A stretch of 64,000 nucleotides of DNA, from contig CAYLKE010000002.1 of NCBI GenBank assembly GCA_964384425.1, positions 10,365-74,364 of the forward strand. The letters are read 5' to 3'. The position numbers and the translations under genes were made by a program. The stretch comes from an uncultured Methanosarcinales archaeon. GTDB taxonomy: Archaea > Nanobdellota > Nanobdellia > Woesearchaeales > JAGLXL01. Shown in pieces: positions 2 to 20,296 of this stretch (its first letter is position 1; each line of letters starts with the position of its first letter). The notes beneath the pieces were generated by a model. That model worked only from the letters and a program-made list of their open reading frames with translations. It did not search any database and was not told the DNA's origin.

Positions 2-919
2 AGAAATAATTATAATATTATAAGATTCCCTTCATTTAGATATTTTTTTTACAAAAATAGAAAAAAAACAACTCAAAAACTTAGACAAAAAAATAAATCT
101 CTTTTTTCTTCAATTCTAATTATTTTTAATATAATTAGTGCTATAGAAATGAAATATTGGATTTGGAAAATAAATAAAAAGTATGGGGCGTTTGATATTT
201 TGCATGGAAATAATATTGAATCTGACTTAGGAATTGCATTTTCTAACATAAAAGCAAAAAAAATTGCACATTTAAGAGATGCTATATTATTAACTCAATT
301 TAGTAAATCCAATATCTTTCTTAAGTATATAAGAAGCAAATTAAGAAGAAAAATTGACAAATTTATTGCTATAAGTAAATTCATTAAAACTAAATATCAC
401 ACTTTTCTTAATATTCCTGAAAATAAATTTGATATAATCTATAATGATGTGTCTAAAGAACAAATATGTGAATTAAATAAAAAACAAGCTAGAGAAAAAT
501 TAAATTTAGACTTAAATAAAAAATATGTTGTTTCTATTGGATCAATTACTAAAGAAAAAGGAATTGATTTTGTTGTTGAAAAATTAGCCCCTTATCTTCC
601 AGATGTAATTTTTTTAATAATAGGTGGAGGATATTTAAAAGAGGAATTAGAAAAGAAAAAAACAAATAATGTTAAATTCTTAGGAAATATAAGTAATAAA
701 GAAGTTAAATATTATTTTAAAGCAGCTGATATTTTCATTGTCCCCTCAAAATGGGAAGAACCATTAGGAAGAGTTTCATTAGAGGCACAAGCAAATAACA
801 CTTATACAATTACTTCTAAAAAAGGTGGATTACCTGAAACTATAAAGAACAATAAAACTGGAAAAGCTATTGAATTAAAAAGTTTTGAAAGAGCAATTAA
901 AGATTATTTTAAAAAATAA
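2..919 (+). CDS. Glycosyltransferase family 4 (GT-B fold), 5'-partial at window edge
   Basis: It has the EX7E motif (EEPLGRVSLE) and a GGLPE segment typical of retaining GT4 enzymes. The frame of the listed ORF (ATG at 149) stays open with no stop back to nt 2. At 256 aa the listed ORF is short for a GT4, so the gene probably begins left of the window. Confidence 0.7.
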   Translation, partial: RNNYNIIRFPSFRYFFYKNRKKTTQKLRQKNKSLFSSILIIFNIISAIEMKYWIWKINKKYGAFDILHGNNIESDLGIAFSNIKAKKIAHLRDAILLTQFSKSNIFLKYIRSKLRRKIDKFIAISKFIKTKYHTFLNIPENKFDIIYNDVSKEQICELNKKQAREKLNLDLNKKYVVSIGSITKEKGIDFVVEKLAPYLPDVIFLIIGGGYLKEELEKKKTNNVKFLGNISNKEVKYYFKAADIFIVPSKWEEPLGRVSLEAQANNTYTITSKKGGLPETIKNNKTGKAIELKSFERAIKDYFKK

Positions 920-2734
920 TTATTTCATCCATTTCTTATACCATAAATTAAACATTAATAATGATAAAAATAGATTAGCATAATTCTTTTTTCCTTTTTG
1001 ATGCTTTTTCCAGCATTTTCTTATTATTTTCTTATTATAATAATCATAATCATTAAAATTAAATATTAATTCGTATGCAAATTCCTTTAATTCATTTCTA
1101 AAATATTCTGCAAAAGGAACAGAAAAACTTTGTTTCTTTCTGTATATTATGCTTTTTGGTAAGTATTTTTCAGCTAATTTTTTTAATAAGACTTTTGTTT
1201 GACCATGTTTTAATTTATATTTTTTTGGTATGTTGTTTGCAAATTCCACTAATTCATGATCTAAAAAAGGGAATCTTCCTTCTAAACTATTTGCCATACA
1301 ACATATATCTTCCTTAAAAAGAAGATCATTAGGAATATATTCTTTTTGATCAAATACAAAAGCACCATATACTGATTTTTTCCTAAAATATTTCTTAAAT
1401 TTATTGAAAATACTTCCTGAATCTATATTTAATTCTTTTTTATCAAAAAATGAAAATAATTTAGGATATAAACTCCAACAATATTCTTTTTCCCAAAATA
1501 ATAAACTAGCTTTTTGCAATTTCTTATTAAACATTCCAAAAAATTTTAGTGTTATATAAATAGGAATTCTTACCAAAGAAGGCAAATATGTAATCAATCT
1601 CAACTTATTAAAATGATAATAGCGTGTATATCCACCAAATAATTCATCTCCTCCTGTTCCAGATAAACCAATAGTAACATTTTTTTTGGCAACCTTGGCA
1701 AGTAGATAAGTTGGAATAGTTGAAGCATCGGAAAATGGTTCGTCAAAATAATTATTAATCTTATTAATCCATTTTTTAATATCTTTTGCAGAAAATTTAA
1801 TTTCGTGATGTTTTGTATTTAACATTTTAGAAACTTTTCTTGCATACTTTGATTCATCATATTTTGCTCTATCAAAACTAACAGAAAATGTTTCTAATTT
1901 TTTTATTTTCTTTCTCATAAAAGAAACAATTAAAGAACTATCAACGCCTCCAGAAAGAAAAGCTCCCACTGGTCTATCAGATATCATTCTTCTTTCAATA
2001 CTTTTATTTAACTTTTTTGTTACAATATCAATTATTTCTTTTTCTTTTATTTTATTATTTAACTTGATATTAACATCCCAATATTTTTGATAATCCTTAA
2101 TTTCTTTTTTCTTTAAATCATAAATTATGTAGTGCCCCGGTTTTAATTTCTTTACGTTTTTCAATATTGTTAAATTCAATGGAGTATATCCAAATAATAA
2201 ATAATGATTCAGCGCTTCTTTACTTATTTCTTTTTTAACAATATTTAATTTAATTATGCATTTTAGTTCAGAAGCAAAAATAAATCTTTTATTTTCATGA
2301 TAATAACATAATGGTTTCATACCTAATCTATCTCTTGCTAAAAATAATTCATTTTTCTTTTTATCATAAATACAAAAAGCAAATTGTCCATTAAATTTTT
2401 TTACACAATCAACGCCCCATTCTTTATATGCGTTAATAATAACTTCAGTATCAGTTTTAGTTTTGAATTTGTATCTCTTGTTTTTTAATTCATTCTTTAT
2501 TTTTTGATAATTATATATCTCCCCATTAAATACAATAATTATATTGTTATTTATACTTTTCATTGGTTGTTTTCCAAAACTAGATAAATCAATAATAGAT
2601 AATCTTTTATGTCCTAAAGTAACATTTTTATCAGAGAAATATCCTTCTTGATCTGGTCCTCTATGAGAAATAAATTTAATTATTTGTTTTATTAATTTTT
2701 TATCATTCCAGGTTATTCCACATATCCCACACAT
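920..2734 (-). CDS. asnB: Asparagine synthetase (glutamine-hydrolysing), AsnB family
   Basis: The N-terminal MCGICGI provides the Ntn catalytic Cys2, and SGGVDSS is the PP-loop. The listed TTG start at 2749 would bury the nucleophilic Cys, so the ATG at 2734 is preferred. Confidence 0.85.
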   Translation of the reverse strand: MCGICGITWNDKKLIKQIIKFISHRGPDQEGYFSDKNVTLGHKRLSIIDLSSFGKQPMKSINNNIIIVFNGEIYNYQKIKNELKNKRYKFKTKTDTEVIINAYKEWGVDCVKKFNGQFAFCIYDKKKNELFLARDRLGMKPLCYYHENKRFIFASELKCIIKLNIVKKEISKEALNHYLLFGYTPLNLTILKNVKKLKPGHYIIYDLKKKEIKDYQKYWDVNIKLNNKIKEKEIIDIVTKKLNKSIERRMISDRPVGAFLSGGVDSSLIVSFMRKKIKKLETFSVSFDRAKYDESKYARKVSKMLNTKHHEIKFSAKDIKKWINKINNYFDEPFSDASTIPTYLLAKVAKKNVTIGLSGTGGDELFGGYTRYYHFNKLRLITYLPSLVRIPIYITLKFFGMFNKKLQKASLLFWEKEYCWSLYPKLFSFFDKKELNIDSGSIFNKFKKYFRKKSVYGAFVFDQKEYIPNDLLFKEDICCMANSLEGRFPFLDHELVEFANNIPKKYKLKHGQTKVLLKKLAEKYLPKSIIYRKKQSFSVPFAEYFRNELKEFAYELIFNFNDYDYYNKKIIRKCWKKHQKGKKNYANLFLSLLMFNLWYKKWMK

Positions 2735-2830
2735 TTTAAATATTATCAAGGAAACATTAATAAATGTTACCGAATCATATAAAAATAAATTAATCTATAT
2801 GATTTAATAAAAGAAAAAATATAATAAAAA

Positions 2831-3583
2831 ATGATTCCATATAAAGATATCAAAGCAGTAGCATTTAGAGATTTTGAAATAAAAAATAATAGGTTATATA
2901 AGAAAATATATAGAATTCTTGCAAGTTATTTGGTTTTTATTTTTCAATTCTTTCCAATTACACCAAATATGGTTTCATTGAGTGCTATTATTGTAACTTT
3001 TTTAGGAGGATTTTTCTTTTTAAAATATAATATTTACTTATTTTTTGCAGGTGTTTTAATGCTTTATTTAGGTGAATTATTAGATCATGCAGATGGTAAT
3101 TTAGCAAGAGTTACAAAAAAAACATCAAAAATAATTTCAGTATTATTGGATGATTATTTCCATGAAATACCTAGACAATTCATATTCTTTTTTATAGGTT
3201 TAGGAGGATATTTAATTTTTAATAAAATCATTTATCTTTATTTGGGATTTATAGTATTAGTTTTTCAATTATTAACTATGCATTTATCACAATTAAGAAG
3301 AGCTGTATTGGCAATGCAAGTAAACACTGGATTTTTTAATGAAGCAAACGATAATAATCCTTTTTCTCAATCTAAAATTAAAAAATTAGGCATGAAAATT
3401 GCTGTTTTTCCAATGAAAGAAAATAAATTAATATTACTTATTTCAGTTATTATTACATTTTTTGTTCCTAATTTCATATTTAATATTTTGTACTTTTACG
3501 CACCCTTTATATTTTTAAGGTTCTTTGCTTTTTTCTATGTTTCATATAAAGGAGTTCAATCTTTTGAGAAAAAAATTCAATAA
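2831..3583 (+). CDS. CDP-alcohol phosphatidyltransferase family membrane protein
   Basis: The protein is polytopic and hydrophobic, with DHADGNLAR matching the DGxxAR core of the family motif. The distal G..D...D part is divergent (S...D...H). It is the first gene of a tightly packed plus-strand operon. Confidence 0.55.
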   Translation: MIPYKDIKAVAFRDFEIKNNRLYKKIYRILASYLVFIFQFFPITPNMVSLSAIIVTFLGGFFFLKYNIYLFFAGVLMLYLGELLDHADGNLARVTKKTSKIISVLLDDYFHEIPRQFIFFFIGLGGYLIFNKIIYLYLGFIVLVFQLLTMHLSQLRRAVLAMQVNTGFFNEANDNNPFSQSKIKKLGMKIAVFPMKENKLILLISVIITFFVPNFIFNILYFYAPFIFLRFFAFFYVSYKGVQSFEKKIQ

Positions 3584-3584
3584 A

Positions 3585-4577
3585 ATGAAAATAATTGCTA
3601 TACCTTTTGGTACTCATAAAGCACATCCTGTAAATCAAGAATGGTTTAAGTCAGTAGGAGTTACTAAATCAAAATCCTTTACTGGTTTTAATTCAAGAAA
3701 AATTGTAACAAAATACCCTTTTATTTCTCAGATTTTAGGATTCATTCATTCAATATTAATGCCCAAGGCAGATGTTTATTTATTAACTAGTGTAGCTTCA
3801 GTAATATCTGTTGTTTTAAATAAAAAATTATTTGGTAGTAAAATAATCACAGTTAATTCAGATACTTTTTACAAGGACCTAAAAAATGCAAGAGGAATTA
3901 GAAAATTATATATGAAATGGTTAGTGAAACACGTTGATGCGATTATTTCAACATCTAATATGATGAAAAACATATCATCAAAGTTTACAAATGTTCCCAA
4001 TGAAGTAGTTTATCCTTTTTGTAATGTAGAAAAATTTGAAAAAAATAAATATAATGCAAATAGTATTAATATTTGTTCTATTGGATTGGGAATAAGTACA
4101 AAAGGAACAGATATATTATACAAAGTATTTGATAATGTCAAGAGAAAAATTTCTAATTCTAAACTTTATGCTCTCGGAGATCTTATTTTTATTAAAAATA
4201 TTAAAAAACCAAAAGATTGTATAAATCCAGGAGTTGTTGATCCATTAAAATATATATGTGATTCGGGTGTGTATGTAAATACATCTCGTCATGAATCTTT
4301 TGGTGTAAATATAATTGAAGCTATGTGTGCAGGATTACCAGTTATTGCTACTAAAAATTGTGGTGCTTCTGAATTAATTTCACCTCATTATCCTGAATTA
4401 ATTACTTCATTAGATCCTATTGAAATATCTGAAAAAATAATTTCTCTTTTAAACAAAAAAGAAAAAAAGAAAAAAATAGGAAAACATCTTAAGAAAATAG
4501 GAAAAGAATTTACTAAAGAAAAAAGTATATCTGATTTTAAAAATACTTTTTATACATTACTGAAGAAAATAAAATGA
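3585..4577 (+). CDS. Glycosyltransferase family 4
   Basis: It has the EX7E motif (ESFGVNIIE) followed by AMCAGLPVIAT. The ATG at 3585 directly follows the upstream stop (3581-3583). The listed TTG start at 3525 would overlap the previous gene by 59 nt. Confidence 0.8.
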   Translation: MKIIAIPFGTHKAHPVNQEWFKSVGVTKSKSFTGFNSRKIVTKYPFISQILGFIHSILMPKADVYLLTSVASVISVVLNKKLFGSKIITVNSDTFYKDLKNARGIRKLYMKWLVKHVDAIISTSNMMKNISSKFTNVPNEVVYPFCNVEKFEKNKYNANSINICSIGLGISTKGTDILYKVFDNVKRKISNSKLYALGDLIFIKNIKKPKDCINPGVVDPLKYICDSGVYVNTSRHESFGVNIIEAMCAGLPVIATKNCGASELISPHYPELITSLDPIEISEKIISLLNKKEKKKKIGKHLKKIGKEFTKEKSISDFKNTFYTLLKKIK

Positions 4578-6322
4578 AAAAAAGCAAACTTATTATTGTA
4601 GCCCCTCATCCAGATGATGAATGGATAGGATGTGGTTGTAGTATACAAAAAGCTGTAGATGAAGGAAGAAAAGTTAAAGTAATTCTTGTAACTGGAAGAG
4701 TAAAATCAAGGGTTGAATTGTCAAAAGAACTTGCTAAGAAATATGGATATGAATTATTATTTTTAGATGAAACAGAAAGAAATCTAAATGAAGAAAACAT
4801 AATCAATATTATCAAAAAAGAGATTTCTATTAACGATACAGTACTTATTCCTTCTTATGATTCTCATCCAGATCATCAATTAATTAATATTATTGCTAAA
4901 GAAAACATAAAGAATAAAGAACTGTTTGAATATGGTATTTATAATAATTCTAAAAATATTTTTAAAAGAGCATTTAATAAAATAAAAAGTTTAATAACTA
5001 AAAAGGGATATACTAGTTTTTTCAAAGGAAGAGGAGTTAGTTTTTCTTATAAGGAAAAAGTAAAACAAAAACACATAAAAGAATTTGATGAATTTCCCAG
5101 AGCAGCTGATCTTTTAAGACCTGCAAAAACTAAATTAAATATTGTTTTTTTAACTAAAGATTATCATGTAAATACTGTTGATGCAGGATTTACAAGCATT
5201 TTAAATCTAGCTAAAAAACTAAAAGAAAAAGGACATTTTGTTACAATGATAAGTAATAAGAGTCATAAAGTTAATTATGGTTCTCCTGCAAATAAAATTT
5301 ATGAGGTTTTTAAAGGAATTCCAATATATCGACCTTATGGCTTTAAATATTTGAATTTTAAAATTGGTCCTTTGAGTTTAAATTTTATAATTAATAGATT
5401 TATTGCTCCAGTATTGGGTTTAAGATATGTGCAAAAAAAACTTAAATTTAAATTTAATATCATACATGGATCCAGCTCTGCATCTTATTTGATAATACCT
5501 TCATTACTAGCTAAATTATTTTCTCAGAGAGCAAAAATATTTCATTCTATACGTTCTGAATCCCATTTTAGTTTGTGGGGATTGAAAACCTCATTTTTAC
5601 TAAATTTTACACAAAAAACATTTGTTACCTTACAGAGTTTAATTAAAAAGATAATCAAAGATGGATGTAATCCTAAAAATCTTGAATTAATAAGATCATC
5701 AATTGATTTAAGCAAATTTAAAAGAATAAAAGAAAAACCTGAATCTCTTAGAAAAAAACATAATGTTGCTAAGGAAGACAAAGTTGTTTTATATTATGGA
5801 AAAGGAGGACATCTAAAAGGTGTTGATGTTTTATTAAAAGCAATTAATTTTATTCCTGAAAATGAAAAAGTTAAGTTTATTTTTTATCATCCAGTTATTT
5901 GGCTACCACATATTGTAAAATTATATGAAAAGCACAAGTACAAATATAAGATCTCTTTTAATATTGGTAAAATTAATGTTCCAGATTACTTAAACATGGC
6001 AGATATACAAGTTCTTCCATTTAAATCAATCCAAGGAACAGAAGGAAACCCTCTCTGTCTATTAGAGGGAATGAGTACAAAAACTCCAATCGTGACAACT
6101 GAATTAAATGATTTAAAAGAAATTGTTGAAAAGGATAAAGATGTTTTAATGGCCCAACCTGATAATCCAGAATCTTTAGCAAATGAAATAATGAGATTAT
6201 TGAATGACAAAGAATTGCAAAAAATATTAATCTGTAATTCATATGAAAAATCAAAATCCTTTGATATAAATATCATCACAAAACAAATACATAGAAATTA
6301 TTTAATATCTTTAAACAAATAA
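4574..6322 (+). CDS. Fusion protein: N-terminal PIG-L/LmbE-family de-N-acetylase plus C-terminal GT4 glycosyltransferase
   Basis: The N-terminal part has AHPDDE-type (APHPDDEWIGCG) and HPDH motifs of the PIG-L/LmbE zinc deacetylases. The C-terminal part has EX7E (EGNPLCLLE) and a GT-B layout. Its start overlaps the upstream stop by 4 nt. Confidence 0.75.
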   Translation: MKKSKLIIVAPHPDDEWIGCGCSIQKAVDEGRKVKVILVTGRVKSRVELSKELAKKYGYELLFLDETERNLNEENIINIIKKEISINDTVLIPSYDSHPDHQLINIIAKENIKNKELFEYGIYNNSKNIFKRAFNKIKSLITKKGYTSFFKGRGVSFSYKEKVKQKHIKEFDEFPRAADLLRPAKTKLNIVFLTKDYHVNTVDAGFTSILNLAKKLKEKGHFVTMISNKSHKVNYGSPANKIYEVFKGIPIYRPYGFKYLNFKIGPLSLNFIINRFIAPVLGLRYVQKKLKFKFNIIHGSSSASYLIIPSLLAKLFSQRAKIFHSIRSESHFSLWGLKTSFLLNFTQKTFVTLQSLIKKIIKDGCNPKNLELIRSSIDLSKFKRIKEKPESLRKKHNVAKEDKVVLYYGKGGHLKGVDVLLKAINFIPENEKVKFIFYHPVIWLPHIVKLYEKHKYKYKISFNIGKINVPDYLNMADIQVLPFKSIQGTEGNPLCLLEGMSTKTPIVTTELNDLKEIVEKDKDVLMAQPDNPESLANEIMRLLNDKELQKILICNSYEKSKSFDINIITKQIHRNYLISLNK

Positions 6323-7854
6323 TGTTTTTTAACTTTTCTTAATCTAAACATATCTTGTATTTGTAAAAAACTTAATACTGTAAATACAATTGCTTTTTCT
6401 ATAAAATTCTTACCAACATATGCTCTCCAATTAGATAACGAATGTTTTATTATACTATGTTTTTTTAGTTTAAGTTTTTTCAATTTCACGTCTGTTATTA
6501 GATTATTTATGTTATGTTTTTTACAAAAACTCATTATTTTATTAAATCCATAATTTAATGGATTACTTACAAAAATAAATATCAAATCGTACTTTTTATA
6601 ATCTTTTTTAATTTGTCTGTAATCTTTAATAACAATTTCATTATTTTCTTTAAGTTTATTAATTAAAAATTTAAGCATATGTGAATCAGAATAATTATAT
6701 ATCATAATTTTCTTATTTTTTAATGTATCAATTTCTTTTTTGATTTCACTTGTTTGATAATTTTCTTCGAGAACCTTTAATGTTGTTTCTTTTGCTTCTT
6801 TTTCCGTTTTTTTATAAAATTGCCAAAATTCAAAAAGAATATTTTTTTGTTTTTGATTTAATTTTCTAATTTTTATTAGTCTTTTCTTCCAATCTTTATG
6901 ATTAATTCTTTTATAGAATGTTATTTTATCATGGTCAATCAATAATTCATAATTATTATTCCTAATAACTGTTTTTTTATATGGTTGACTGATGTATCTA
7001 TTATCTATTCTGACTAATCTGTTATTTATGATTTCTTTATTTTCATCATTTTCAATTAAATTTTTCAATGATATTGCTATTTTATTTTTAATAGGACTTT
7101 CTAATTTAATATAATCAAAGATAGTTTCAAATACATCAAATAATCCCACTTGAGTATTAATAATCTTATTTTTTACTTTTGATAATTCTGAAGGTAATTT
7201 AATAAATAAATTAGAACCATAACAATCCTCACTTACATATATAGAATGATTTCTAGGATTCATTAACCATCCTAATCCATGTATTTTTCCATAATCAGTA
7301 TATCCATGATCTGAAGAATTAATTATTATTGAATCTTCATACAAATTATTTTCTTTTAAATAAGTATATAATTTTTTAGTATATTCTTCTTGATCAGAAT
7401 GTGGTGCTAAATGCACATAAACAAAATTGTTTCCTTTGTAATCAAATTTATTTTTCATCACAAAAAGAAAATAATTCCAAATATCTATATTTTTAGATTT
7501 GAATTCTTTTTTATCTTCTTCAATACTTAAAATGTCTTTATAAAAATTCATACCTTCTTTACAAAAAAATATTCCATTTAAAGTATAATTATTTTCTTTA
7601 AGTAGAGTTAAGTAATTTTGATGATTTCCAAATTGTTTAAGTGCTGCATGGGCATAATACAATTCATATGAAAATCTTCCTGAGAAAAATGAACTTGTTG
7701 ACATAATAGTTGAGGTTGCTGATGCAATTGCATTTGTAAATAATATCCCTTCTGGAGCCATTTTCTTATACGTGGAAAGTTGTCCATAATTATCATTACC
7801 TGGAAATGCTCTATTTCCTTCATTTGCAATCCAAAATATGTTTTGTTTTTTCAT
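6298..7854 (-). CDS. Alkaline-phosphatase/sulfatase-superfamily protein (candidate phospho- or phosphonyl-group transferase) with an extra C-terminal domain
   Basis: It has an SSDHGY metal-ligand segment, and a Ser/Thr-rich segment (ASATSTIMSTSSFFSGRF) sits where sulfatases carry CxPxR. It is the last gene of the phosphonate operon. Confidence 0.55.
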   Translation of the reverse strand: MKKQNIFWIANEGNRAFPGNDNYGQLSTYKKMAPEGILFTNAIASATSTIMSTSSFFSGRFSYELYYAHAALKQFGNHQNYLTLLKENNYTLNGIFFCKEGMNFYKDILSIEEDKKEFKSKNIDIWNYFLFVMKNKFDYKGNNFVYVHLAPHSDQEEYTKKLYTYLKENNLYEDSIIINSSDHGYTDYGKIHGLGWLMNPRNHSIYVSEDCYGSNLFIKLPSELSKVKNKIINTQVGLFDVFETIFDYIKLESPIKNKIAISLKNLIENDENKEIINNRLVRIDNRYISQPYKKTVIRNNNYELLIDHDKITFYKRINHKDWKKRLIKIRKLNQKQKNILFEFWQFYKKTEKEAKETTLKVLEENYQTSEIKKEIDTLKNKKIMIYNYSDSHMLKFLINKLKENNEIVIKDYRQIKKDYKKYDLIFIFVSNPLNYGFNKIMSFCKKHNINNLITDVKLKKLKLKKHSIIKHSLSNWRAYVGKNFIEKAIVFTVLSFLQIQDMFRLRKVKKHYLFKDIK

Positions 7855-7865
7855 TTTAACCCTAT

Positions 7866-8495
7866 TTATTTCTTTTCAAAAACCATAACTAAATTTTGTC
7901 CAAATAACAAATTTTTAATTGGTAAGTTTATATGAATTAATGGTGTAACGCTTCTATTGAATGTTATTTTCTTAATTTTAAACAATTTTCTGACAAGCAT
8001 TTTAATTTGCCAAGTAAAAGTAGGAGTAATATGTGGTTCAAACCAATCTCTATCTTTTCCATACAATTTACCTTGAAAACTAGGAAATTTTCCAGTAAAT
8101 AAAAAGAATAACCTACTAAACCAATTTTGACTATTTGGTGTTGTAACAATTAATTTACCTTTTTCATTAAGCATATTATATGCATCAACAAATAATTTCT
8201 TGGAATTGTATATGTGTTCAATAACTTCTGTACAAATAACCATATCATATTTTTGTTTTATTTTAATTTCTTTATTCAAGTCAACCTTTAAACATTTAAT
8301 ATCAGAAGCACGATTAATAGAAGGATTAATATCTGTTGCAGTAATATCAAATCCTAGTTTATTTAATTTTAAAGGTACTCCACCATACCCACTACCCAAA
8401 TCAATAATTTTTTTTGGTTTATAATATTTAACTAATTTAACAACTGTTTCATGAAGATACTTTGATGCTCTTCTGTATTTTCTAGATTCTTTCAT
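7866..8495 (-). CDS. Class I SAM-dependent methyltransferase
   Basis: Motif I is IIDLGSGYGG, followed by an acidic post-I segment and the DMVICTEVIEHI motif. Its start overlaps the upstream gene's stop by 4 nt. Confidence 0.8.
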   Translation of the reverse strand: MKESRKYRRASKYLHETVVKLVKYYKPKKIIDLGSGYGGVPLKLNKLGFDITATDINPSINRASDIKCLKVDLNKEIKIKQKYDMVICTEVIEHIYNSKKLFVDAYNMLNEKGKLIVTTPNSQNWFSRLFFLFTGKFPSFQGKLYGKDRDWFEPHITPTFTWQIKMLVRKLFKIKKITFNRSVTPLIHINLPIKNLLFGQNLVMVFEKK

Positions 8496-9625
8496 TTTTC
8501 CACTTTATTTTTTAAAATATATATCAATCCTTTGTTATCAACACTTCTAGGATTGTTCTTTGCCCTTTCTAGATTAAAATTTAATGATAGTTCATTTAAG
8601 TCTTTTTCATCTATACCTAATTTTTCCAATTTAGTTTCAAGACGTATATTTTCCATAATCTGATTAACTTTTAAATTTATCTCTTTTACATTATTAACAT
8701 TAAATATATCACATATTTCTTGTATAGTTTGCTTTACATATTCTACTCCTCTTTTATCTAAACAATCATCTTTTTGGACATTGTTATTATAGATTGCAAA
8801 TTGTCCTAATATAAGTCCAACAGCATGTCCATGAGGAATTCCATGATTAGAAGTAAATGTATATGAAACTGCATGAGGTGCAGTAGTTTTTGTAATGTTG
8901 ATTGCTTTTCCTGCTAAATTAGCAGCATTTAACATATTTTGCTTTGCTATAATGGAATCGCCATTTACTGCTTTATCAATACTTCCTAAGGTTAATATCA
9001 TTGCTTTTTTTGCATAATTTTTAGATTCTTCTGTTGAATTTATAGACCAATATGATTCAACAGCTTGACATAATGCATCCATCCCACTAGATGCTGCAAC
9101 AGATTTAGGAAGATTTTTTGTTAAATTTGAATCTAAAATACAATAATCTGGTAATAAATAATTATGTGCAAGAGAATATTTTTTTTTATCTTTGTAAACA
9201 ACAGCAAAATGAGTTGCCTCACTTCCTGACCCAAATGTTGTTGGAATTGCAATCAAAGGTTTTCCTTTTTCTAAGATTGGCATTTCTTTTTTCAAATAAC
9301 TTTCTATTGAAGCAGAATTATGAGAAAATGTATTTATTGATTTTGCCATGTCTATAACACTTCCTCCACCAATTGCTACAATTATATCATATATTTTTTC
9401 ATTAAAATGTTTTAATCCTTTTTTAATATCTTCAACTTTTACATTTGGAGAAAAATCATTAAAGAAAAAAGAATTATAATCTTGAAAATTATTTTCAATG
9501 TAATTTTTTGCTCCACACAGTTCAAATGATTTTTTACCTGTAACAAAAAAAATATTTTTGGCATAAAGATTCCCAATTATACAATTTAAATAATTAATAC
9601 CAAAATACTCTCTTTGATTAGTCAT
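8492..9625 (-). CDS. Iron-containing (group III) alcohol dehydrogenase, candidate phosphonoacetaldehyde reductase
   Basis: It has the GGGSVIDMAK NAD(P)-binding motif and a His-rich metal site (PHAVSY, HGIPHGHAV). The specific role is inferred from its position directly downstream of ppd and pepM. Confidence 0.65.
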   Translation of the reverse strand: MTNQREYFGINYLNCIIGNLYAKNIFFVTGKKSFELCGAKNYIENNFQDYNSFFFNDFSPNVKVEDIKKGLKHFNEKIYDIIVAIGGGSVIDMAKSINTFSHNSASIESYLKKEMPILEKGKPLIAIPTTFGSGSEATHFAVVYKDKKKYSLAHNYLLPDYCILDSNLTKNLPKSVAASSGMDALCQAVESYWSINSTEESKNYAKKAMILTLGSIDKAVNGDSIIAKQNMLNAANLAGKAINITKTTAPHAVSYTFTSNHGIPHGHAVGLILGQFAIYNNNVQKDDCLDKRGVEYVKQTIQEICDIFNVNNVKEINLKVNQIMENIRLETKLEKLGIDEKDLNELSLNFNLERAKNNPRSVDNKGLIYILKNKVEK

Positions 9626-10754
9626 CTTTACTTAAAAATTCCATAAATGCTTTTTTATTTTCAATAGGGGTAGTGGTTGGTCTTCCTAAATCTTTTCTTG
9701 CTCCTTTATTTACTTTAATTTCAAGTAATGCAGGACCTTCACATTCTTTAAGGATTTTTATTTTCTCTTTCAACTGAGATTCTGTTTCACAACTCATTAT
9801 TTCTTTGTAATTACATCCTTGTGCAATTTTTTCAAAATCCATTGTTTCTGCAACTGTTGGTTGCCCTCCAACTGAATCATGAGCACAATTATTGAAAATA
9901 ATGTGTTTAAAGTTTTTAGGTTCTAATGCTCCAGTAATTCCCATTGATCCCATATGCATTAATGCTGCTCCATCCCCATCAAAACAATATACTTGTTTAT
10001 TTGGTTTTTGCAATGCAATTCCTAATGCAATGGATGAACTATGTCCCATTGACCCAACTGTTAAAAAATCATTTGCATGTCCTTGACTTTTTTCTTCTCT
10101 GTATTCAAATAATTCTCGAGAAGTTTTCCCAGTAGTTGAAACAATAACTGCATCTAATCCTATTTCATTTGCAACAATTTTTACTGCATCTTCTCTACTC
10201 ATATCATATTGACAAATTGAATTAGCTTTTTCTGCTGAATATGATTCAAATAATCCTTTTCTTACAATTAAAGCATAAGGCTCATTTGTTTCTTTGATTT
10301 TACTTACTGCTGTATCAATTGTTTCTTTTGCTTTATCAATTTCATCAGATAATATTTCATATTTCATTCCAATTGCATCTAATAATCCAGTAGTAACCAT
10401 TCCTTGTTTTTTATGTTGAGGTTCATCTTTTTTACCTGGTTCTCCCCTCCATCCAATTAAAAGTAACATTGGGATATTATATACTTCTTTATCTGTTAAA
10501 GAAATTAATGGATTCATACAATTTCCTTGTCCAGAATTTTGCATATAAACTATTCCTATTTTATTAGTTGCAAGATGATAACCTGCTGCTAATGCAATTG
10601 CATTTCCTTCATTTGCTGCAATTATGTTATTTTTCTCTTCAACATTATCTAATAAATAAGCACAAAAATCTTTTAGTAATGAGTCTGGAACACCCGTGTA
10701 AAAGTTTACTTCTTTTTCTTTTAGTTTTTTATAAAAATCTTTACAATTTATCAT
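9618..10754 (-). CDS. ppd: Phosphonopyruvate decarboxylase (ThDP-dependent)
   Basis: It has the ThDP motif GDGAALMHMGS...NN and the size (378 aa) and layout of the Ppd/sulfopyruvate decarboxylase family. It is assigned to Ppd because it lies adjacent to PEP mutase. Confidence 0.8.
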   Translation of the reverse strand: MINCKDFYKKLKEKEVNFYTGVPDSLLKDFCAYLLDNVEEKNNIIAANEGNAIALAAGYHLATNKIGIVYMQNSGQGNCMNPLISLTDKEVYNIPMLLLIGWRGEPGKKDEPQHKKQGMVTTGLLDAIGMKYEILSDEIDKAKETIDTAVSKIKETNEPYALIVRKGLFESYSAEKANSICQYDMSREDAVKIVANEIGLDAVIVSTTGKTSRELFEYREEKSQGHANDFLTVGSMGHSSSIALGIALQKPNKQVYCFDGDGAALMHMGSMGITGALEPKNFKHIIFNNCAHDSVGGQPTVAETMDFEKIAQGCNYKEIMSCETESQLKEKIKILKECEGPALLEIKVNKGARKDLGRPTTTPIENKKAFMEFLSKDD

Positions 10755-10769: not shown

Positions 10770-12068
10770 TTATTTCTCTGGTATTAACCTTAATATCTCC
10801 TTAATAGATAAGCAGTGTTCTCCTGCTTCATGACATCTTTCATTTGTTAAAATAGATTCAGCAGTTCTTACCATAGATGGATAAGCACTTCTAAGAAGAT
10901 GGTTAGCGTAAATAACAACACTTATTCCTGCTTTATTTAATTCCTTTTCTGAAATATGTCCATATGCAGTTGGAACTGCAATCAATGGAATTTTATTTTC
11001 AAATTGATTATATCTTTTACAAAATTCCATTAGTTCTGCTGTATCTGAATCTTTACTATGAATCATTATTGCATCAGCTCCCGCATTGATGTATGAATTT
11101 GCTCTAATCAAAGCATCTTCAACACCTTTTTTTAAAATAAGACTTTCAATTCTAGCGATAACCATAAAATCATCAGTAATTTGTGCTTTTTTACCAAGGG
11201 TTATCTTTTGTGAAAAAGCTTGAACAGTATCTTGTGTTTGTTGAACATCTGTTCCAAAAAGGGAATTTTTCTTTGCCCCAATTTTATCCTCTATAATGAC
11301 AGCAGAAACCCCCAATCTTTCTAATGTTTTAACCATAAAAGTAAAATGTTCTGGCAATCCTCCATTATCCCCATCAACAATTAATGGTTTAGTTGTTACT
11401 TCGAAAACTTCATTAATGGTATTAGTTCTAGATGAAAAATCAACACAACCAGTATCAGGTTTTCCTTTTGCAGTTGAATCTGTCAAACTACTTAGCCACA
11501 TTGCGTCAAATTCTTTAATTTTAACACCATCATTTATTTTTGTAGTTTCAACAATTCTTCCTGTTAGCCCATTATGGACTTCTAAAACTCTAACAATATC
11601 TTTTAATTCAAGCAATCTTCTAAGTTTCTTTCTTCTTACTTCTGGAGTTGTTCCTTTGTCAACAACATGTTTAATTATTTTTGTAGATGAAATATCTGGT
11701 GTGTATTCTGGTTCAACTAATTCTCCATCCCATTCTTTTAATGTTTCGATAACTCTTTCTCTTGTCTTTTTCTGAACACCTTCTCTCCAATCTGTTCCAT
11801 GAACAACATAATCTGGTTTTAATAATTTTAAGTTAGGAACATAATCTAATGTGTCTTGAGGAATTACACTTGTAACTCCTTTGATATTTTCAATAACTGC
11901 TTTTCTTTTTTCATAATCTAAAAAAGGAATTCTTTTGTAACTTGCAATTGCTTTATCTGTAAGAAGACCTATAGTTACATTACCTAACTTTCTAGCTTCT
12001 TTAATGATATTCAAATGGCCATGATGTATTATATCTCCACACATCCCAATATATACTTTTTTTGTCAT
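10770..12068 (-). CDS. pepM: Fusion protein: HxGH-type cytidylyltransferase (TagD/ECT-like) plus phosphoenolpyruvate mutase
   Basis: The N-terminal part has GDIIHHGH and ISSTKII, which are cytidylyltransferase signatures. The C-terminal part has [21 protein letters not shown] and the PepM-discriminating EDKX5NS motif ([10 protein letters not shown], nt 11262-11291). Confidence 0.9.
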
Positions 12069-12649
12069 TTTTTTTCACCACCTTTATGTATTTTAAATAT
12101 TTTTTTGATTATGTTTTCTGTTGATAATTTTTCATAGAATTCTGGTTGTACAATCTTTGCATTAATTTCTTTTATATATTTTTTTCCAGGAATATTTTGC
12201 CAATTAGAACCATAAATAACTATAACTTCAGCATTAGGAAATTGATTTTTAATTTTTCTTAAATTTTCAGTAGGATCAAATTCATTTTGATTCATAACCA
12301 TATCAACACACTGTAATGCAGATACAATGTTTTTTCTTTCTTTAAAATCAGCAATAGGTTCTTCTTTATATGTCTTTATTGCTTCATTTGTTAAAACCCC
12401 ACATATATGAAAATCTCCTAATTCATTTGCTTTTTGCAATAATCTTAAATGTCCATAATGAAATAAATCTGCAGTAACAGATGAGTAAACTATTGTTTTA
12501 GTTTTAATTTTTTCAATATCAACTACTTCCCCTTCTTTTATACCAGAATTCTTTGGAATTGTAACACACAATTGCCCATTTGATTTATTTATCCATATTT
12601 GTTTTTTCATATATAACATCCCATTTACTATTAACACTAGTATTAACAT
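12065..12649 (-). CDS. Cytidylyltransferase-family protein with N-terminal AbrB/SpoVT-like segment
   Basis: It has ADLFHYGH (HxGH) and LSTENII motifs. The N-terminal [18 protein letters not shown] resembles a swapped-hairpin AbrB domain. An alternative ATG at 12610 (MKKQIW) may be the true start. Confidence 0.7.
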
Positions 12650-12695: not shown

Positions 12696-13994
12696 TTAAA
12701 GTAATTTATTTACGTAATTAAGAACATCATCCAAAGTATTATCTTCACCTTCAGACTTAATCTTAACAGGCTTAACAATCTTATTTATTTTATCAAATAT
12801 TTTCTCTTGCCTATATAAATCTTCAATAGGATGATCTTTTTTTCTAACAAATAGGATCTGAGGATCATTGTATAGGTAAAATGTTATTGTTGGTTTTGGA
12901 AAAAACCAAAATAAAAATCTCTTTAAAAACATAGGAACTTTATTTGTTAATAGTACGTCTGTTGTATATCTATCTGTTATAACAAAATCATGTGTTTTTC
13001 TTGCAGGAAATATTTTGAAAAAATATCTTAATAACAAATCAAATGCAAAAACAGGAGCAGCCAAAGTATGGATTATACTAAATTTTTTCCTTCCCTTGCC
13101 TTCTGCACCCAAACTTGTTTTTCCACCTATTTTTTTATACCTCTTACCAAAAAAATGAATAGGAAGAATATTATTTCTTCCCCTACCAGTATAAATTCTT
13201 TTTACTTTAAAATTATTTTTTTTAAGTACTTGTATGAAATTATTTGAAGTTGTTGTTTTACCACTTCCATCCATTCCTATGAATGCAATCAAAGGCTTAC
13301 TTTTTCTAAACCAATTTAATTTCCATAATCCTCCAAAAAAATATAATCTGAATATCCAATACAATTTAAAGGGATAATTTTTAATAAAATAATTGTAAAT
13401 ATTTCTAGCCTCTTTCTCAATTAATTCATATCTATGTTTTTTAATATTGTTAATAACAAATATAGAATATTTTCTTCCAATTTTTTTATTTAATATCTTT
13501 TCAATATAATCCCAATTAATATTTTCTTTTTTTAATCTTTCAATATCATCTATGTAATCTTTTCTAAATCTTTTTTTATCTAAAATACTATGTAACAAAA
13601 TAATTAATAATTCATCATTAAAAGAACTAACATAAAAAAAACCTATTTTTCTTTTATGTTTTAATATATTTTTTGAATCTAAATATCTTAAATTACTACC
13701 TGTTATCCCATCAACATGTATATGAAAAAACAATCTTTTCTTTTCTTTAACAAAAAATTTATGGTACCCTAAATGATTAGAAAATGGATTTATGGGAATT
13801 CTCTTAAAATTAAAATTCTCAAATATTTTCTTAATTTTAGCTACATCTTTTCTCTCCACACAGAGATCAATGTCTTTTCCATCATATATCTTGTTTTCTA
13901 ATAAAAAGCCATAATTTCTAGAAATAACATATCTCACATTGTTTTTCTCAAAATTATCCAAAACTTTTTTAATCTCTTTTATGAATTCAATCAT
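12696..13994 (-). CDS. Fusion protein: N-terminal Pol-beta-type nucleotidyltransferase-like domain plus C-terminal thymidylate-kinase-like P-loop kinase
   Basis: The N-terminal part has a GKDIDLCV NTase-like acidic motif. The C-terminal part has Walker A GMDGSGKTT and a DRY segment (ITDRYTTD) like dTMP kinases. Confidence 0.5.
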   Translation of the reverse strand: MIEFIKEIKKVLDNFEKNNVRYVISRNYGFLLENKIYDGKDIDLCVERKDVAKIKKIFENFNFKRIPINPFSNHLGYHKFFVKEKKRLFFHIHVDGITGSNLRYLDSKNILKHKRKIGFFYVSSFNDELLIILLHSILDKKRFRKDYIDDIERLKKENINWDYIEKILNKKIGRKYSIFVINNIKKHRYELIEKEARNIYNYFIKNYPFKLYWIFRLYFFGGLWKLNWFRKSKPLIAFIGMDGSGKTTTSNNFIQVLKKNNFKVKRIYTGRGRNNILPIHFFGKRYKKIGGKTSLGAEGKGRKKFSIIHTLAAPVFAFDLLLRYFFKIFPARKTHDFVITDRYTTDVLLTNKVPMFLKRFLFWFFPKPTITFYLYNDPQILFVRKKDHPIEDLYRQEKIFDKINKIVKPVKIKSEGEDNTLDDVLNYVNKLL

Positions 13995-16455: not shown

Positions 16456-16517
16456 AATAATTTTTATAAATATTATTAAAAATAAACATAACTACTAGAA
16501 AATGGGTGATGGATGAA

Positions 16518-16523
16518 GGAGGT
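16518..16523 (+). promoter_or_regulatory. Shine-Dalgarno site (GGAGGT) for the SDR gene at 16529
   Basis: GGAGGT lies 5 nt upstream of the ATG and is complementary to the archaeal 16S 3' end (..AUCACCUCC). Confidence 0.5.
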
Positions 16524-16528
16524 CAGAT

Positions 16529-17572: not shown

Positions 17573-17573
17573 A

Positions 17574-18062
17574 ATGAATATTAAAAAAATAATAAAATTC
17601 AGTGAAAGAATATTTGATGTGTTTATGAAAGACTTTTCATCAATAGGAAGTATGGTTTTCTATGGGTTGGTTATGATTATGTTTTTTATATTAGAATTTT
17701 ACAAAATAAGTTTATTTCTTTTGTTGAGTTTTATTTTATTGTCATCGATTACAATTATTATTAGATCAATTTATTTTAAAACTCGTCCTAATGTAATGAA
17801 ACACAATTCATTCTTTGAAAGACTAGATGCTTCATCTTTTCCAAGTGTACATTCTGCAAGAATTATTGTATTGTTTTTAACATATTTATTTTTCTTTGAA
17901 ATTAATTTATCTATTACAATAGTTTTAGGAGCAATAACATTATGTGTTCTGTATAGCAGAATCTATCTCAAAAAACATTATTTGATTGATGTGGTGTTTG
18001 GGGTTTTGAATGGATTTGTTGTGGGAGTTATTGTTAATTATTTGGTAGGGAAATTATTATGA
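17574..18062 (+). CDS. PAP2-family (type 2 phosphatidic acid phosphatase) membrane phosphatase
   Basis: All three PAP2 motifs are present: KTRP, PSVHS and SRIYLKKHYLID. Confidence 0.85.
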   Translation: MNIKKIIKFSERIFDVFMKDFSSIGSMVFYGLVMIMFFILEFYKISLFLLLSFILLSSITIIIRSIYFKTRPNVMKHNSFFERLDASSFPSVHSARIIVLFLTYLFFFEINLSITIVLGAITLCVLYSRIYLKKHYLIDVVFGVLNGFVVGVIVNYLVGKLL

Positions 18063-19336: not shown

Positions 19337-19355
19337 AATAATTTCAATAATTAAA

Positions 19356-20294: not shown

Positions 20295-20296
20295 AA

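Follow-up and report, generated by a model that had tools for sequence, protein, structure and literature searches.

The three translationally coupled genes at positions 2831-6322 on the plus strand of the window (the whole 64-kb stretch of DNA analysed here) are best read as one arm of a variable island, about 22 kb long, for cell-surface glycoconjugates in a DPANN archaeon of Woesearchaeota type, and for the first of them, ORF1, the most likely role is to attach a phosphonate group and not to begin an inositol lipid of the GPI-anchor kind. Taken as a whole, we favour with a probability of about 0.55 a reading in which two GT4 glycosyltransferases and a PIG-L deacetylase build a lipid-linked glycan and ORF1 is a Kennedy-type transferase using CMP-2-hydroxyethylphosphonate.

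Organization of the locus

Read from the sequence, the genes follow in the order ORF1, GT4a and ORF3. ORF1 (2831-3583, 250 aa) ends with a TAA stop at 3581-3583; after a gap of 1 nt GT4a starts at an ATG at 3585, which was chosen by its match to homologues (the mechanical ORF list opens the gene at a TTG at 3525 instead), and ends at 4577; ORF3 (4574-6322) overlaps it by 4 nt (ATGA). The original prediction had described this three-gene structure and its tight coupling, which the coordinates bear out, and its domain assignments, namely a CDP-alcohol transferase for ORF1, a GT4 for GT4a and a PIG-L::GT4 fusion for ORF3, agree with Pfam and with the fold model of ORF1. The features of the island in the window are as follows.

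149..919, plus strand: GT4 glycosyltransferase, further island member (Glycos_transf_1, E 5.5e-29; 55% identity to the L005/L012 homologue)
920..2749, minus strand: AsnB-type glutamine amidotransferase, divergent from ORF1 (Asn_synthase, E 1e-92)
2831..3583, plus strand: ORF1, 250-aa polytopic membrane protein of CDP-alcohol phosphotransferase fold; candidate CMP-phosphonate / CDP-alcohol head-group transferase
3585..4577, plus strand: GT4a, 330-aa soluble GT-B/GT4 retaining-type glycosyltransferase with EX7E motif
4574..5131, plus strand: PIG-L/LmbE de-N-acetylase domain of ORF3 (residues 1-186; PF02585)
5132..6322, plus strand: GT4b domain of ORF3 (residues 187-582; EX7E at E490/E498)
6298..7854, minus strand: sulfatase / alkaline-phosphatase-superfamily protein, 518 aa (PF00884, 36 bits)
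7866..8495, minus strand: TehB-like SAM methyltransferase (Pfam; 76% identity to L002/3)
8492..9625, minus strand: Fe-dependent alcohol dehydrogenase (Fe-ADH), PhpC/FomC type, phosphonoacetaldehyde to 2-hydroxyethylphosphonate (Fe-ADH, E 3e-36)
9618..10754, minus strand: phosphonopyruvate decarboxylase, Ppd (TIGR03297, 504.6 against 312.5 bits)
10770..12068, minus strand: Fom1-type cytidylyltransferase::PEP mutase (Ppm) fusion, CT::Ppm (TIGR02320, 387.8 against 319.6 bits)
12065..12649, minus strand: CT2, stand-alone PF01467 cytidylyltransferase (PDB sequence matches)
12696..13994, minus strand: NTP_transf_5 / thymidylate-kinase-like protein (Pfam; homologues in L001, L004, L011)
14047..15516, plus strand: Wzx-type flippase for lipid-linked oligosaccharides (Polysacc_synt, E 4e-14)

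Related loci are numbered from L001 onwards. Judged from gene content, the context is one of glycan assembly, as suggested by the Wzx flippase, the extra GT4s and AsnB in the window and by GT9, HldE-like or AglB genes in the relatives. The flippase occurs in every related island, and AsnB is a conserved member with 51-60% identity in L001-L005 and L012; the GT4 at 149..919 lacks about the first 110 residues of its 366-aa homologue in L005. The islands of the relatives also hold GT2 genes, a polysaccharide deacetylase and STT3 (AglB/STT3), and many other glycosyltransferases and a lipid-carrier pathway are found in this island as well as in its relatives.

The convergent phosphonate operon

The convergent neighbour is indeed the phosphonate operon that had been claimed, with the sulfatase-like protein, the methyltransferase, Fe-ADH, Ppd and the cytidylyltransferase::Ppm fusion, and a functional tie of the three genes to it is supported by co-occurrence in L001, L002/L003 and L012. 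Of all the proteins in the island, the methyltransferase is conserved best. Fe-ADH has Phn_Fe-ADH as its top NCBIfam match, at 168 bits against a cut-off of 424. In CT::Ppm, the N-terminal CT domain matches 5x3d, the structure of the Fom1 CyTase, with E 1.6e-53; the Fom1 product is CMP-HEP, and PF01467::Ppm fusions are common (PMC6697681). CT2, which is translationally coupled to CT::Ppm by a 4-nt overlap, has the same 5x3d domain as its best PDB match (E 3e-15), followed by ethanolamine-phosphate cytidylyltransferase. Both cytidylyltransferases of the window are 8-9 kb from ORF1, not adjacent to it. The sulfatase-like protein, which the original prediction called EtN-P-transferase-like, is about 50% identical in L001, L002/3 and L012 and always accompanies phosphonate genes, and segment prediction found no transmembrane or hydrophobic segment in its 518 aa.

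Fold and motif of ORF1

The match of ORF1 to the Pfam family CDP-OH_P_transf is marginal (21.9 bits, gathering score 22.0), and the assignment is settled by its AlphaFold2 model (pLDDT 85), because the top 18 PDB matches returned by Foldseek are all CDP-alcohol phosphotransferases (probability 0.99-1.00). Hydrophobic segments are likewise predicted in the protein. The closest solved folds are PIP synthase, AF2299 and DIPP synthase, enzymes which use inositol phosphate. With IPCT-DIPPS / AF2299 and the PIP/AIP synthases ORF1 shares the membrane fold (Foldseek probability 1.0, TM 0.5-0.67) and the proximal D1xxD2GxxAR, which reads DHADGNLAR within D85xxD88G89xxA92R93...S103xxxD107xxxH111; a nucleotidylyltransferase accompanies DIPPS and AF2299 too, in their case as a fusion. 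ORF1 keeps D3 (D107) but, unlike these enzymes, has Ser for G2 and His111 for D4, so that the divergent distal motif mentioned in the original prediction is confirmed; AF2299 is its sole PDB sequence match, and His111 is aligned with the D4 of AF2299. ORF1 also lies far under the cut-offs of these families. AIPS, PIPS and DIPPS are the top NCBIfam matches of ORF1 and of all 40 clade members tested, however the AIP-synthase model, whose cut-off is 180 bits, scores ORF1 at 38 and matches the CDP-binding N-terminal half only, while the sequence of the C-terminal half, on the acceptor side, cannot be aligned.

The ORF1 clade and its gene neighbours

The clade to which ORF1 belongs is uncharacterised, and its proteins have about 250 aa and the CDP-alcohol phosphotransferase fold. 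In this clade D1, D2, G, A and R of DxxDGxxAR hardly vary, and 120 of the 152 representatives have His at the D4 position. Beside its relatives, a nucleotidyl- or cytidylyl-transferase gene is found in seven of eight independent contexts: L006 has a homologue 77% identical to CT2, divergent and about 0.9 kb from the ORF1 homologue, a HAD::CTP_transf_like gene overlaps the clade member on the P0017 contig, as does an NTP_transferase gene in L013/L014, and in L008-L010 the clade member stands with an NTP_transferase and DHBP-synthase pair adjoining Wzx. L015, likewise from Woesearchaeota, has its clade member as the final gene of a Ppm operon containing Ppm::NTP_transf_3, aminotransferase::NTP_transferase and NTP_transferase::methyltransferase, with two further CDP-OH genes close by. 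These nucleotidylyltransferase neighbours and the Ppm operon of L015 speak for a head-group donor that is soluble and activated with CDP or CMP, and against CDP-archaeol and inositol phosphate. ORF1 as an archaetidylinositol-phosphate synthase is thus ruled against by the score of its match, by the clade-wide change of D4 to His and by these neighbours. The link of the clade to Ppm is seen in two independent lineages only, that of the window and L012 and that of L015, and because other clade members pair with different pathways, e.g. DHBP synthase, we infer the donor from the local context only.

The same neighbourhoods bear on a possible though rather unlikely alternative, in which ORF1 would move a conventional phospho-alcohol to the glycan (e.g. 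glycerol phosphate, with CDP-glycerol from CT2) and the phosphonate would be attached separately via the sulfatase-like enzyme. It agrees with the resemblance of CT2 to TagD glycerol-3-phosphate cytidylyltransferase and to the heptose-1-P adenylyltransferase domain, with the joint occurrence of ORF1 and CT2 in the window, L012 and L006, with the non-phosphonate donors of clade members elsewhere, and with L001 and L002/L003, where the phosphonate operon and the sulfatase-like gene are present without ORF1. However, the best match of CT2 is the HEP-specific domain of Fom1, its gene is coupled to that of CT::Ppm, L001 holds CT2 without ORF1, and one clade member is inside a Ppm operon.

Glycosyltransferases and the deacetylase fusion

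Both glycosyltransferases match Glycos_transf_1 in Pfam, GT4a with E 1.6e-18 and GT4b with E 6e-21 over ORF3 residues 391-558. The top NCBIfam match of GT4a is BshA, at 54.7 bits against a cut-off of 273.7 and hence not an equivalog, and in L001, L004 and L012 its orthologues immediately precede the GT4b gene. For GT4b, of which unfused orthologues exist (P0008-P0012), the top Foldseek matches are MshA and BshA (TM 0.80-0.86), in a ranking nearly flat across GT4 structures (E 1e-19 to 1e-16). No equivalog cut-off of NCBIfam is reached by either GT4 (BshA, 52-55 against 274 bits; MshA, 24-29 against 462 bits), and neither matches the PIGA domain of Pfam. MshA and BshA are natural partners of PIG-L-family deacetylases, and the acceptor of MshA is inositol phosphate.

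The PIG-L domain (PF02585) scores 40.3 bits against 28.2 over ORF3 residues 8-108, and its model has a Rossmann-like fold with pLDDT 83-97. The translation reads APHPDDE at residues 10-16, HPDH at 98-101 and EX7E at E490...E498, which are intact as had been stated, and H12, D14, D15, H98 and H101, which are predicted to bind Zn or to act in catalysis, are all present. A search for full-length PIG-L::GT4 fusions found six others, all 45-62% identical to ORF3 (seven clusters with the window), so the fusion is as uncommon as had been supposed; the PIG-L motifs are conserved in all seven. L011 has a stand-alone PIG-L orthologue, 46% identical and 3.7 kb from the GT4b orthologue, which like the fusions ties PIG-L to GT4b.

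By analogy, the genes would follow GPI (PIG-A/PIG-L), mycothiol (MshA/MshB), bacillithiol (BshA/BshB) and GpgS/GpgD in GT4 transfer of an N-acetylhexosamine and then removal of the acetyl group, and the PIG-L domain resembles the GPI, mycothiol and bacillithiol deacetylases in its family and its metal and catalytic motifs. GpgSDF of Pseudomonas applies the same GT4-deacetylase logic to a lipid, GlcN-phosphatidylglycerol, plus a flippase (PMC12713373), with GpgD from a different deacetylase family (COG3233). Unlike all these systems, the deacetylase here is physically fused to a GT4, the proteins stay below equivalog thresholds, the context is a multi-glycosyltransferase/Wzx glycan island and the PIG-L module is dispensable in relatives.

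It was from this likeness that a GPI or GlcN-archaetidylinositol logic had been proposed, in which ORF1 would be AIPS-like, one GT4 would add GlcNAc to the inositol lipid, PIG-L would de-N-acetylate it and the other GT4 would extend it into a GPI-like glycolipid, possibly phosphonate-decorated. The gene order does match the pathway order in a tightly coupled unit, the PIG-L motifs are intact, and the closest matches of ORF1 and GT4b include inositol-phosphate enzymes. We nevertheless consider the proposal improbable and not borne out in view of the low AIPS score, the His for D4, the neighbours of the clade, among which stand Ppm and nucleotidylyltransferases for small molecules instead of genes for CDP-archaeol or inositol, the missing PIGA match and the flat ranking of GT4b. 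In addition, neither an inositol-phosphate synthase (MIPS) nor a CDP-archaeol synthase (CarS) was found within the 64-kb window, and no evidence of inositol metabolism was seen. Finally, ORF1 is missing from most of the related loci that have GT4a and the fusion (it is absent from L001-L004 and from L011, where GT4a and/or GT4b are retained), and L012, the closest locus with ORF1, keeps both GT4s without the PIG-L domain, therefore the parts of the proposed lipid pathway are not inherited together. A soluble small molecule built on GlcN (such as a thiol resembling bacillithiol or mycothiol, or a compound of aminoglycoside type) instead of a surface glycan is very improbable: both GT4s have BshA and MshA among their best matches in sequence and fold, and the bacillithiol, mycothiol and 2-deoxystreptamine aminoglycoside pathways have in common a GT4 step and then a deacetylase of the PIG-L family, but their cut-offs are far away, no BshC/MshC-type cysteine ligase is seen among the annotated genes of the island, and Wzx, the many glycosyltransferases and the lipid-carrier pathway are kept in all relatives.

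Comparison with phosphonate pathways

Bacterial phosphonolipid clusters have already been drawn with CDP-alcohol phosphatidyltransferase and NTP-transferase genes (PMC5987646). These phosphonolipid/Pnt clusters of Burkholderia and Nostoc combine PepM, Ppd, AEP transaminase, NTP transferase and CDP-alcohol phosphatidyltransferase in a Kennedy/Lic logic, and the window locus resembles them in its Ppm-Ppd core, in a cytidylyltransferase activating the phosphonate as a CMP conjugate (PMC5987646; PMC6697681) and in a membrane protein of the CDP-alcohol phosphotransferase family, L015 being the example in a Woesearchaeote. It differs in that the branch enzyme is Fe-ADH (to HEP) and not an aminotransferase (to AEP), the cytidylyltransferase is of Fom1 type (PF01467), the transferase has His for D4 and is co-transcribed with two GT4s and PIG-L on the strand opposite to the phosphonate genes, and the host is a DPANN archaeon. 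With the fosfomycin pathway of Streptomyces (Fom1-Fom2-FomC) the operon shares the CyTase::Ppm fusion, Ppd, Fe-ADH and the predicted product CMP-HEP (PMC6697681); unlike that pathway, it has no Fom3, Fom4 or FomD set, and it stands among cell-surface glycan genes instead of an antibiotic cluster.

Proposed mechanism

What is observed here is the structure of the genes, the identity of their domains and folds, the state of the motifs and the patterns of synteny; from these we infer the substrates, the order of steps and the choice of lipid or glycan as acceptor. GT4a and GT4b, as soluble retaining GT-B enzymes, would lengthen a lipid-linked acceptor, bound to the membrane, on its cytoplasmic side, where the PIG-L domain as a Zn-dependent de-N-acetylase would turn the N-acetylhexosamine (probably GlcNAc) added by one GT4 into a free-amine hexosamine, and the Wzx flippase would then export the glycan with its de-N-acetylated amino sugar. 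ORF1 is not the phosphonate transferase of every island, as L001 and L002/L003 have the operon but lack ORF1; the sulfatase-like protein could be, and it is an alternative candidate for this role. The ORF1 clade may act together with the small-molecule cytidylyltransferase encoded nearby, much as in the Kennedy pathway or with DIPP synthase, and the donor available in this island would be CMP-2-hydroxyethylphosphonate, a product of Fe-ADH, Ppd and the Fom1-like CyTase::Ppm and perhaps also of CT2. From this donor ORF1 would pass the phosphonyl head group to a hydroxyl, either on the lipid or on the lipid-linked glycan, and release CMP.

Results

The three-gene unit and its domains

As originally predicted, three tightly coupled genes are located on the plus strand:

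2831-3583 (+), ORF1, a 250-aa membrane protein of the CDP-alcohol phosphotransferase fold, with the stop codon TAA at 3581-3583
3585-4577 (+), GT4a, a 330-aa GT4 glycosyltransferase, whose start as supported by its homologues, the ATG at 3585, leaves a 1-nt gap to ORF1
4574-6322 (+), ORF3, a PIG-L/LmbE de-N-acetylase fused to a second GT4 (GT4b), whose ATG at 4574 gives a 4-nt overlap (ATGA) with the end of GT4a at 4577

The window has a G+C content of about 25% and contains archaeal housekeeping genes (NMD3, RFC, an intein-containing CDC48, LeuRS and ribosomal protein L11), and the nearest homologues of the genes in question are found in Candidatus Woesearchaeota MAGs. We therefore take the DNA to come from a DPANN archaeon of the Woesearchaeota type. 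The CDC48/VCP AAA ATPase gene (57248-60907, minus strand) is split by an intein with a LAGLIDADG homing-endonuclease domain. The tRNA and Rfam scans of the window gave no matches.

By its fold, ORF1 indeed belongs to the CDP-alcohol phosphotransferase family. Its match to PF01066 (CDP-OH_P_transf) is marginal, with 21.9 bits against a gathering threshold of 22.0, and a match to this family is precomputed for the close homologue P0016 and for distant clade members. The AlphaFold2 model (pLDDT 85, pTM 0.80) is a polytopic all-helical fold, and its top 18 PDB matches in Foldseek are all PIPS, AF2299, IPCT-DIPPS or PgsA1 with probability of 0.99-1.00. Since only CDP-alcohol phosphotransferases match the model among solved structures, the fold of ORF1 is settled.

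Both GT4s carry the EX7E motif and a Glycos_transf_1 domain (PF00534, 67.3 and 75.1 bits vs 26.4), which in ORF3 occupies the C-terminal two thirds. The prediction that ORF3 joins a PIG-L domain to a GT4 also holds, with both Pfam domains above threshold: PIG-L (PF02585) is matched at residues 8-108 with 40.3 bits vs 28.2, APHPDDE spans residues 10-16 and HPDH residues 98-101, and Hx[DE]H is kept in all seven PIG-L::GT4 fusions; the motifs quoted earlier recur in the homologues. Judged from these motifs, the PIG-L domain retains every residue expected for catalysis, including the predicted Zn ligands and general base. The predicted structure of ORF3 is confident (pLDDT 89, pTM 0.86), in which a Rossmann-like N-terminal domain is followed by a GT-B enzyme.

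A His-variant clade of CDP-alcohol phosphotransferases

An exhaustive HMMER search retrieved 780 representatives at E <= 0.001, mostly of about 250 aa, and the statistics of the clade cover the best 152 of them. The proximal signature of the superfamily on TM2-TM3, D1xxD2G1xxAR, is present in ORF1 as D85, D88, G89, A92 and R93, each of which is conserved in 149-151 of the 152 representatives. In the distal signature, G2xxxD3xxxD4, D4 is the proposed catalytic base. ORF1 departs from this signature, having S103 at G2 and H111 at D4 and keeping D3 as D107, so that the divergent distal motif noticed earlier is real; of the catalytic Asp residues, D4 is replaced, and D85, D88 and D107 are all kept. 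Among the 152 representatives, 120 have His and 9 have Asp at D4, G2 is occupied by Gly or Ser, and 123 carry Asp or Glu at D3. Because D4 is replaced by His clade-wide, and His111 falls on D4 of AF2299 in the sequence alignment, we assign ORF1 on sequence grounds to a distinct, uncharacterised His-variant clade. On the same conservation, we reject the idea that ORF1 is a degenerate pseudo-enzyme.

A word-indexed protein search found only two close homologues of ORF1, and a scan of metagenome contigs found a single 1.3-kb contig (L007). A pattern scan of genome contigs with the ORF1 alignment A1 gave 502 matches with no true relative among them, and a scan of viral contigs with the clade protein P0017 gave no match.

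Nucleotidylyltransferases beside the clade

A small-molecule nucleotidylyltransferase occurs in the same island in all eight readable independent contexts of the clade, and adjoins the clade gene immediately in seven of them.

Table. Nucleotidylyltransferases in the neighbourhood of clade members (locus: arrangement).
L006 (P0016, 44% identity to ORF1): homologue of CT2, the stand-alone PF01467 cytidylyltransferase of the window, 77% identical, about 0.9 kb away, divergent
P0017 contig (43% identity to ORF1): HAD::CTP_transf_like gene overlapping the clade gene
L013/L014 (P0019): NTP_transferase gene overlapping the clade gene
L008, L009 and L010 (three bacterial loci): NTP_transferase and DHBP-synthase pair, divergent, beside Wzx
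L015 (Woesearchaeota MAG, P0028): clade gene is the last gene of a Ppm-containing operon
Lineage of the window, L005 and L012: cytidylyltransferases of the convergent phosphonate operon, 8-9 kb off

In L015, the operon encodes Ppm::NTP_transf_3, aminotransferase::NTP_transferase, a second aminotransferase and NTP_transferase::methyltransferase ahead of the clade member, and next to it are two further CDP-OH genes and a CTP_transf_like fusion. In its neighbourhoods, the clade follows the pattern of enzymes of the Kennedy or DIPP-synthase type, whose donor is a soluble head group activated with CDP or CMP rather than a CDP-lipid.

Several of these loci deserve description in their own right. L015 (1377-14815) is densely packed with phosphonate genes and has three CDP-alcohol-phosphotransferase paralogues; its aminotransferase::NTP_transferase is a Tde1415-like AEPT-PntC, and a 958-aa cytidylyltransferase::PPDK-like fusion is also encoded. 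The ORFs scanned there include no phosphonopyruvate decarboxylase. In the unrelated bacterial polysaccharide loci L008 (5602-7783), L009 (5588-7804) and L010 (5581-7789), the clade member is divergent from a conserved pair of NTP_transferase and RibB-like DHBP synthase next to Wzx, which suggests a CDP-activated four-carbon ketol-phosphate decoration of polysaccharides. The P0017 contig (JGI sample 3300075153, 15.5 kb) has an overlapping operon of Asp/Glu racemase, CDP-OH gene and HAD::cytidylyltransferase, in that order, together with many small same-strand ORFs of unknown function, and could represent a DPANN virus or mobile element.

The phosphonate operon and its probable activated donor

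The convergent minus-strand operon has a Fom1-type core, namely a PF01467 CyTase fused to Ppm, plus Ppd and Fe-ADH. The CyTase::Ppm protein scores 387.8 bits vs 319.6 with TIGR02320, and its N-terminal domain matches the Fom1 CyTase (5x3d) at E 1.6e-53; Ppd exceeds the equivalog cut-off of TIGR03297 (504.6 bits vs 312.5); the Fe-ADH is of the PhpC/FomC type and stays below the PsrA cut-off (168 bits vs 424). CT2, a second cytidylyltransferase, belongs to this operon too, and its best PDB match is again the Fom1 CyTase. Fom1 makes CMP-2-hydroxyethylphosphonate (CMP-HEP), and PF01467::Ppm fusions account for 23.6% of Ppm proteins (PMC6697681). Clusters for bacterial phosphonolipids have been drawn with CDP-alcohol phosphatidyltransferase and NTP-transferase genes (PMC5987646). 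The most economical reading is that ORF1 moves HEP from CMP-HEP onto a hydroxyl of a lipid or lipid-linked glycan.

A different division of labour would give ORF1 a conventional phospho-alcohol donor and make the soluble sulfatase-like protein the phosphonate transferase. The sulfatase-like protein is always present with the phosphonate genes, also where ORF1 is absent, and therefore ORF1 cannot be the sole route of phosphonate attachment. We hold this alternative to be doubtful. A role of the protein as an EptA/LtaS-type membrane transferase with a lipid donor was rejected, as it has no transmembrane segment. The proteins with no Pfam match beside CT2 in L001 and L006 were considered as hidden ORF1 homologues and rejected, both being soluble; the one in L006 gives a weak HD-domain match and the one in L001 gives none.

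Further genes may be related to the phosphonate:

6298-7854 (-), soluble sulfatase-superfamily protein
7866-8495 (-), TehB-like methyltransferase, better conserved than any other island protein (76% identity to L002/L003)
26403-27776 (-), B12-binding radical SAM enzyme, 12 kb from the phosphonate operon

The first two travel together in the phosphonate-bearing loci L001 and L002/L003, but the pair is not universal, for L012 has the sulfatase-like and phosphonate genes and lacks a homologue of the methyltransferase; the two may serve to O-methylate and transfer the phosphonate. The radical SAM enzyme, whose best NCBIfam match is a weak one to the PhpK-family P-methyltransferase (82 bits vs 600), might act on the phosphonate like Fom3 or PhpK. 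Literature searches on Woesearchaeota phosphonate glycans and on CDP-alcohol transferases in capsule synthesis yielded nothing relevant.

The PIG-L::GT4 fusion and the mosaic glycan island

The fusion is uncommon, as had been claimed: six other full-length ones were found, 45-62% identical to ORF3, along with unfused GT4b orthologues of 36-53% identity. It is kept in L001, L002/L003 and L004 amid AsnB, methyltransferase, Wzx and further GT4 genes, and ORF1 is absent from all of these loci. GT9, GT2 and HldE-like genes are also carried by L002/L003, polysaccharide deacetylase and AglB/STT3 by L004, and GT9 and polysaccharide-deacetylase genes by a longer JGI contig with the L001 protein. GT4a immediately precedes the fusion in L001 and L004, and its sole counterpart in L002/L003 is a GT4 of 28% identity on the opposite strand. 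In L012, the nearest ORF1-bearing relative, the order is AsnB, ORF1, GT4a, GT4b and phosphonate operon, and there is no PIG-L domain. Because related loci keep ORF1 and PIG-L separately, each is an accessory module in its own right within a mosaic glycan island, and the two are not successive steps of a conserved lipid pathway.

In L011, GT4b is unfused and the orthologous PIG-L (199 aa, 46% identity) is encoded by a gene of its own at a distance of 3.7 kb. The fusion in ORF3-type proteins and this split pair argue that PIG-L and GT4b act consecutively on an N-acetylhexosamine residue. In the same locus (1206-7995), PIG-L and GT4b flank ACP, ACPS (phosphopantetheinyl transferase), AMP-dependent ligase fusion and GNAT-like genes, which suggests that in this lineage the freed amine is N-re-acylated, perhaps with an unusual acyl group.

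Two other parts of the window concern glycan synthesis:

149-919 (+), the island's first GT4, a 256-aa protein whose N-terminal domain is shortened
15568-22042, beside the island, candidate polyprenyl-phosphate pentofuranose (DPA/DPR-type) donor pathway

The former has a 366-aa homologue in L005/L012 and, lying near the edge of the window, could be a truncated or frameshifted copy. In the latter, the UbiA enzyme nearly reaches the decaprenyl-phosphate phosphoribosyltransferase equivalog cut-offs (208 bits vs 234; 200.7 vs 207), accompanied by an SDR/epimerase, a PAP2 phosphatase, an FAD oxidoreductase (PRK07233, 254.6 bits vs 252), a second SDR and a 581-aa protein without family match.

The inositol-lipid reading of ORF1 and the GT4s

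The original hypothesis was a GlcN-inositol-type lipid, with ORF1 likened to archaetidylinositol-phosphate synthase. ORF1 is no equivalog of that synthase: it scores 38.2 bits vs 180 with NF040950, the match covering residues 22-137 only, that is, just the N-terminal, CDP-binding half, and none of 40 clade members tested against NF040950 does better than E 2e-16. Neither MIPS nor CarS was found among the scanned ORFs of the 64-kb window. The two GT4s were placed against PIG-A, MshA and BshA by equivalog HMM scores and fold ranking: neither matches the PIGA domain (PF08288) at E <= 0.01, and both stay below the equivalog cut-offs of MshA (TIGR03449, 462.5) and BshA (TIGR03999, 273.7), with BshA 54.7 and MshA 24.0 bits for GT4a and BshA 51.5 and MshA 29.4 bits for GT4b. 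MshA and BshA are the top structural neighbours of the GT4b model (TM 0.80-0.86), in a ranking almost flat over GT4 structures. The GlcN-inositol lipid is hence judged unlikely, and the analysis corrects an attractive but unsupported annotation as an archaeal GPI-like lipid.

Discussion

The reading that we prefer, with a probability of about 0.55, is the extension of a glycan by GT4a and GT4b combined with de-N-acetylation by PIG-L, HEP addition by ORF1 and flipping by Wzx. On the cytoplasmic face, GT4a and GT4b would extend a lipid-linked acceptor, the PIG-L domain would de-N-acetylate the HexNAc added by one of them, ORF1 would add HEP from CMP-HEP, and Wzx would flip the finished product. 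Sequence features, folds and synteny are directly shown, and the substrates and the step order are what we infer.

A phosphonate-bridged GPI-like glycolipid (lipid-HEP-GlcN-hexose) would use the same enzymes in another order: ORF1 would put HEP on the lipid, GT4a would add GlcNAc to the hydroxyl left free on the HEP head group, much as GpgS acts on the glycerol of phosphatidylglycerol, PIG-L would de-N-acetylate it and GT4b would extend it. We regard it as quite improbable; if true, it would give a lipid-scavenging DPANN archaeon an anchor that resists phosphatases and phospholipases, made by a His-variant clade of CDP-alcohol phosphotransferases that had gone unrecognised. That the product is a soluble GlcN-based metabolite is very unlikely.

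Returning to the proposed HEP-decorated glycan, its parts have known counterparts. The phosphonate core is a Fom1/Fom2/FomC-type module, here in a cell-surface context; the association of ORF1 follows the logic of bacterial phosphonolipid and Pnt clusters; and GT4 followed by de-N-acetylase is common to the GPI, mycothiol, bacillithiol and GlcN-phosphatidylglycerol pathways, the last of which, gpgSDF, was recently solved (PMC12713373). What is new is the His-variant clade with its consistent nucleotidylyltransferase pairing, the lineage-restricted PIG-L::GT4 fusion, and the way in which both are combined with HEP synthesis in a DPANN archaeon. The fusion and its split orthologues provide a clean Rosetta-stone link of two consecutive steps.

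The steps moving CMP-activated phosphonates onto cell surfaces were called 'enigmatic' in the survey of Rice et al. (2019). The enzymes placing them there are poorly known, and the widespread His-variant clade is a concrete candidate. For the DPANN archaea, the surface glycans would bear HEP decoration and a de-N-acetylated amino sugar, and it is such surfaces that mediate attachment to host cells.
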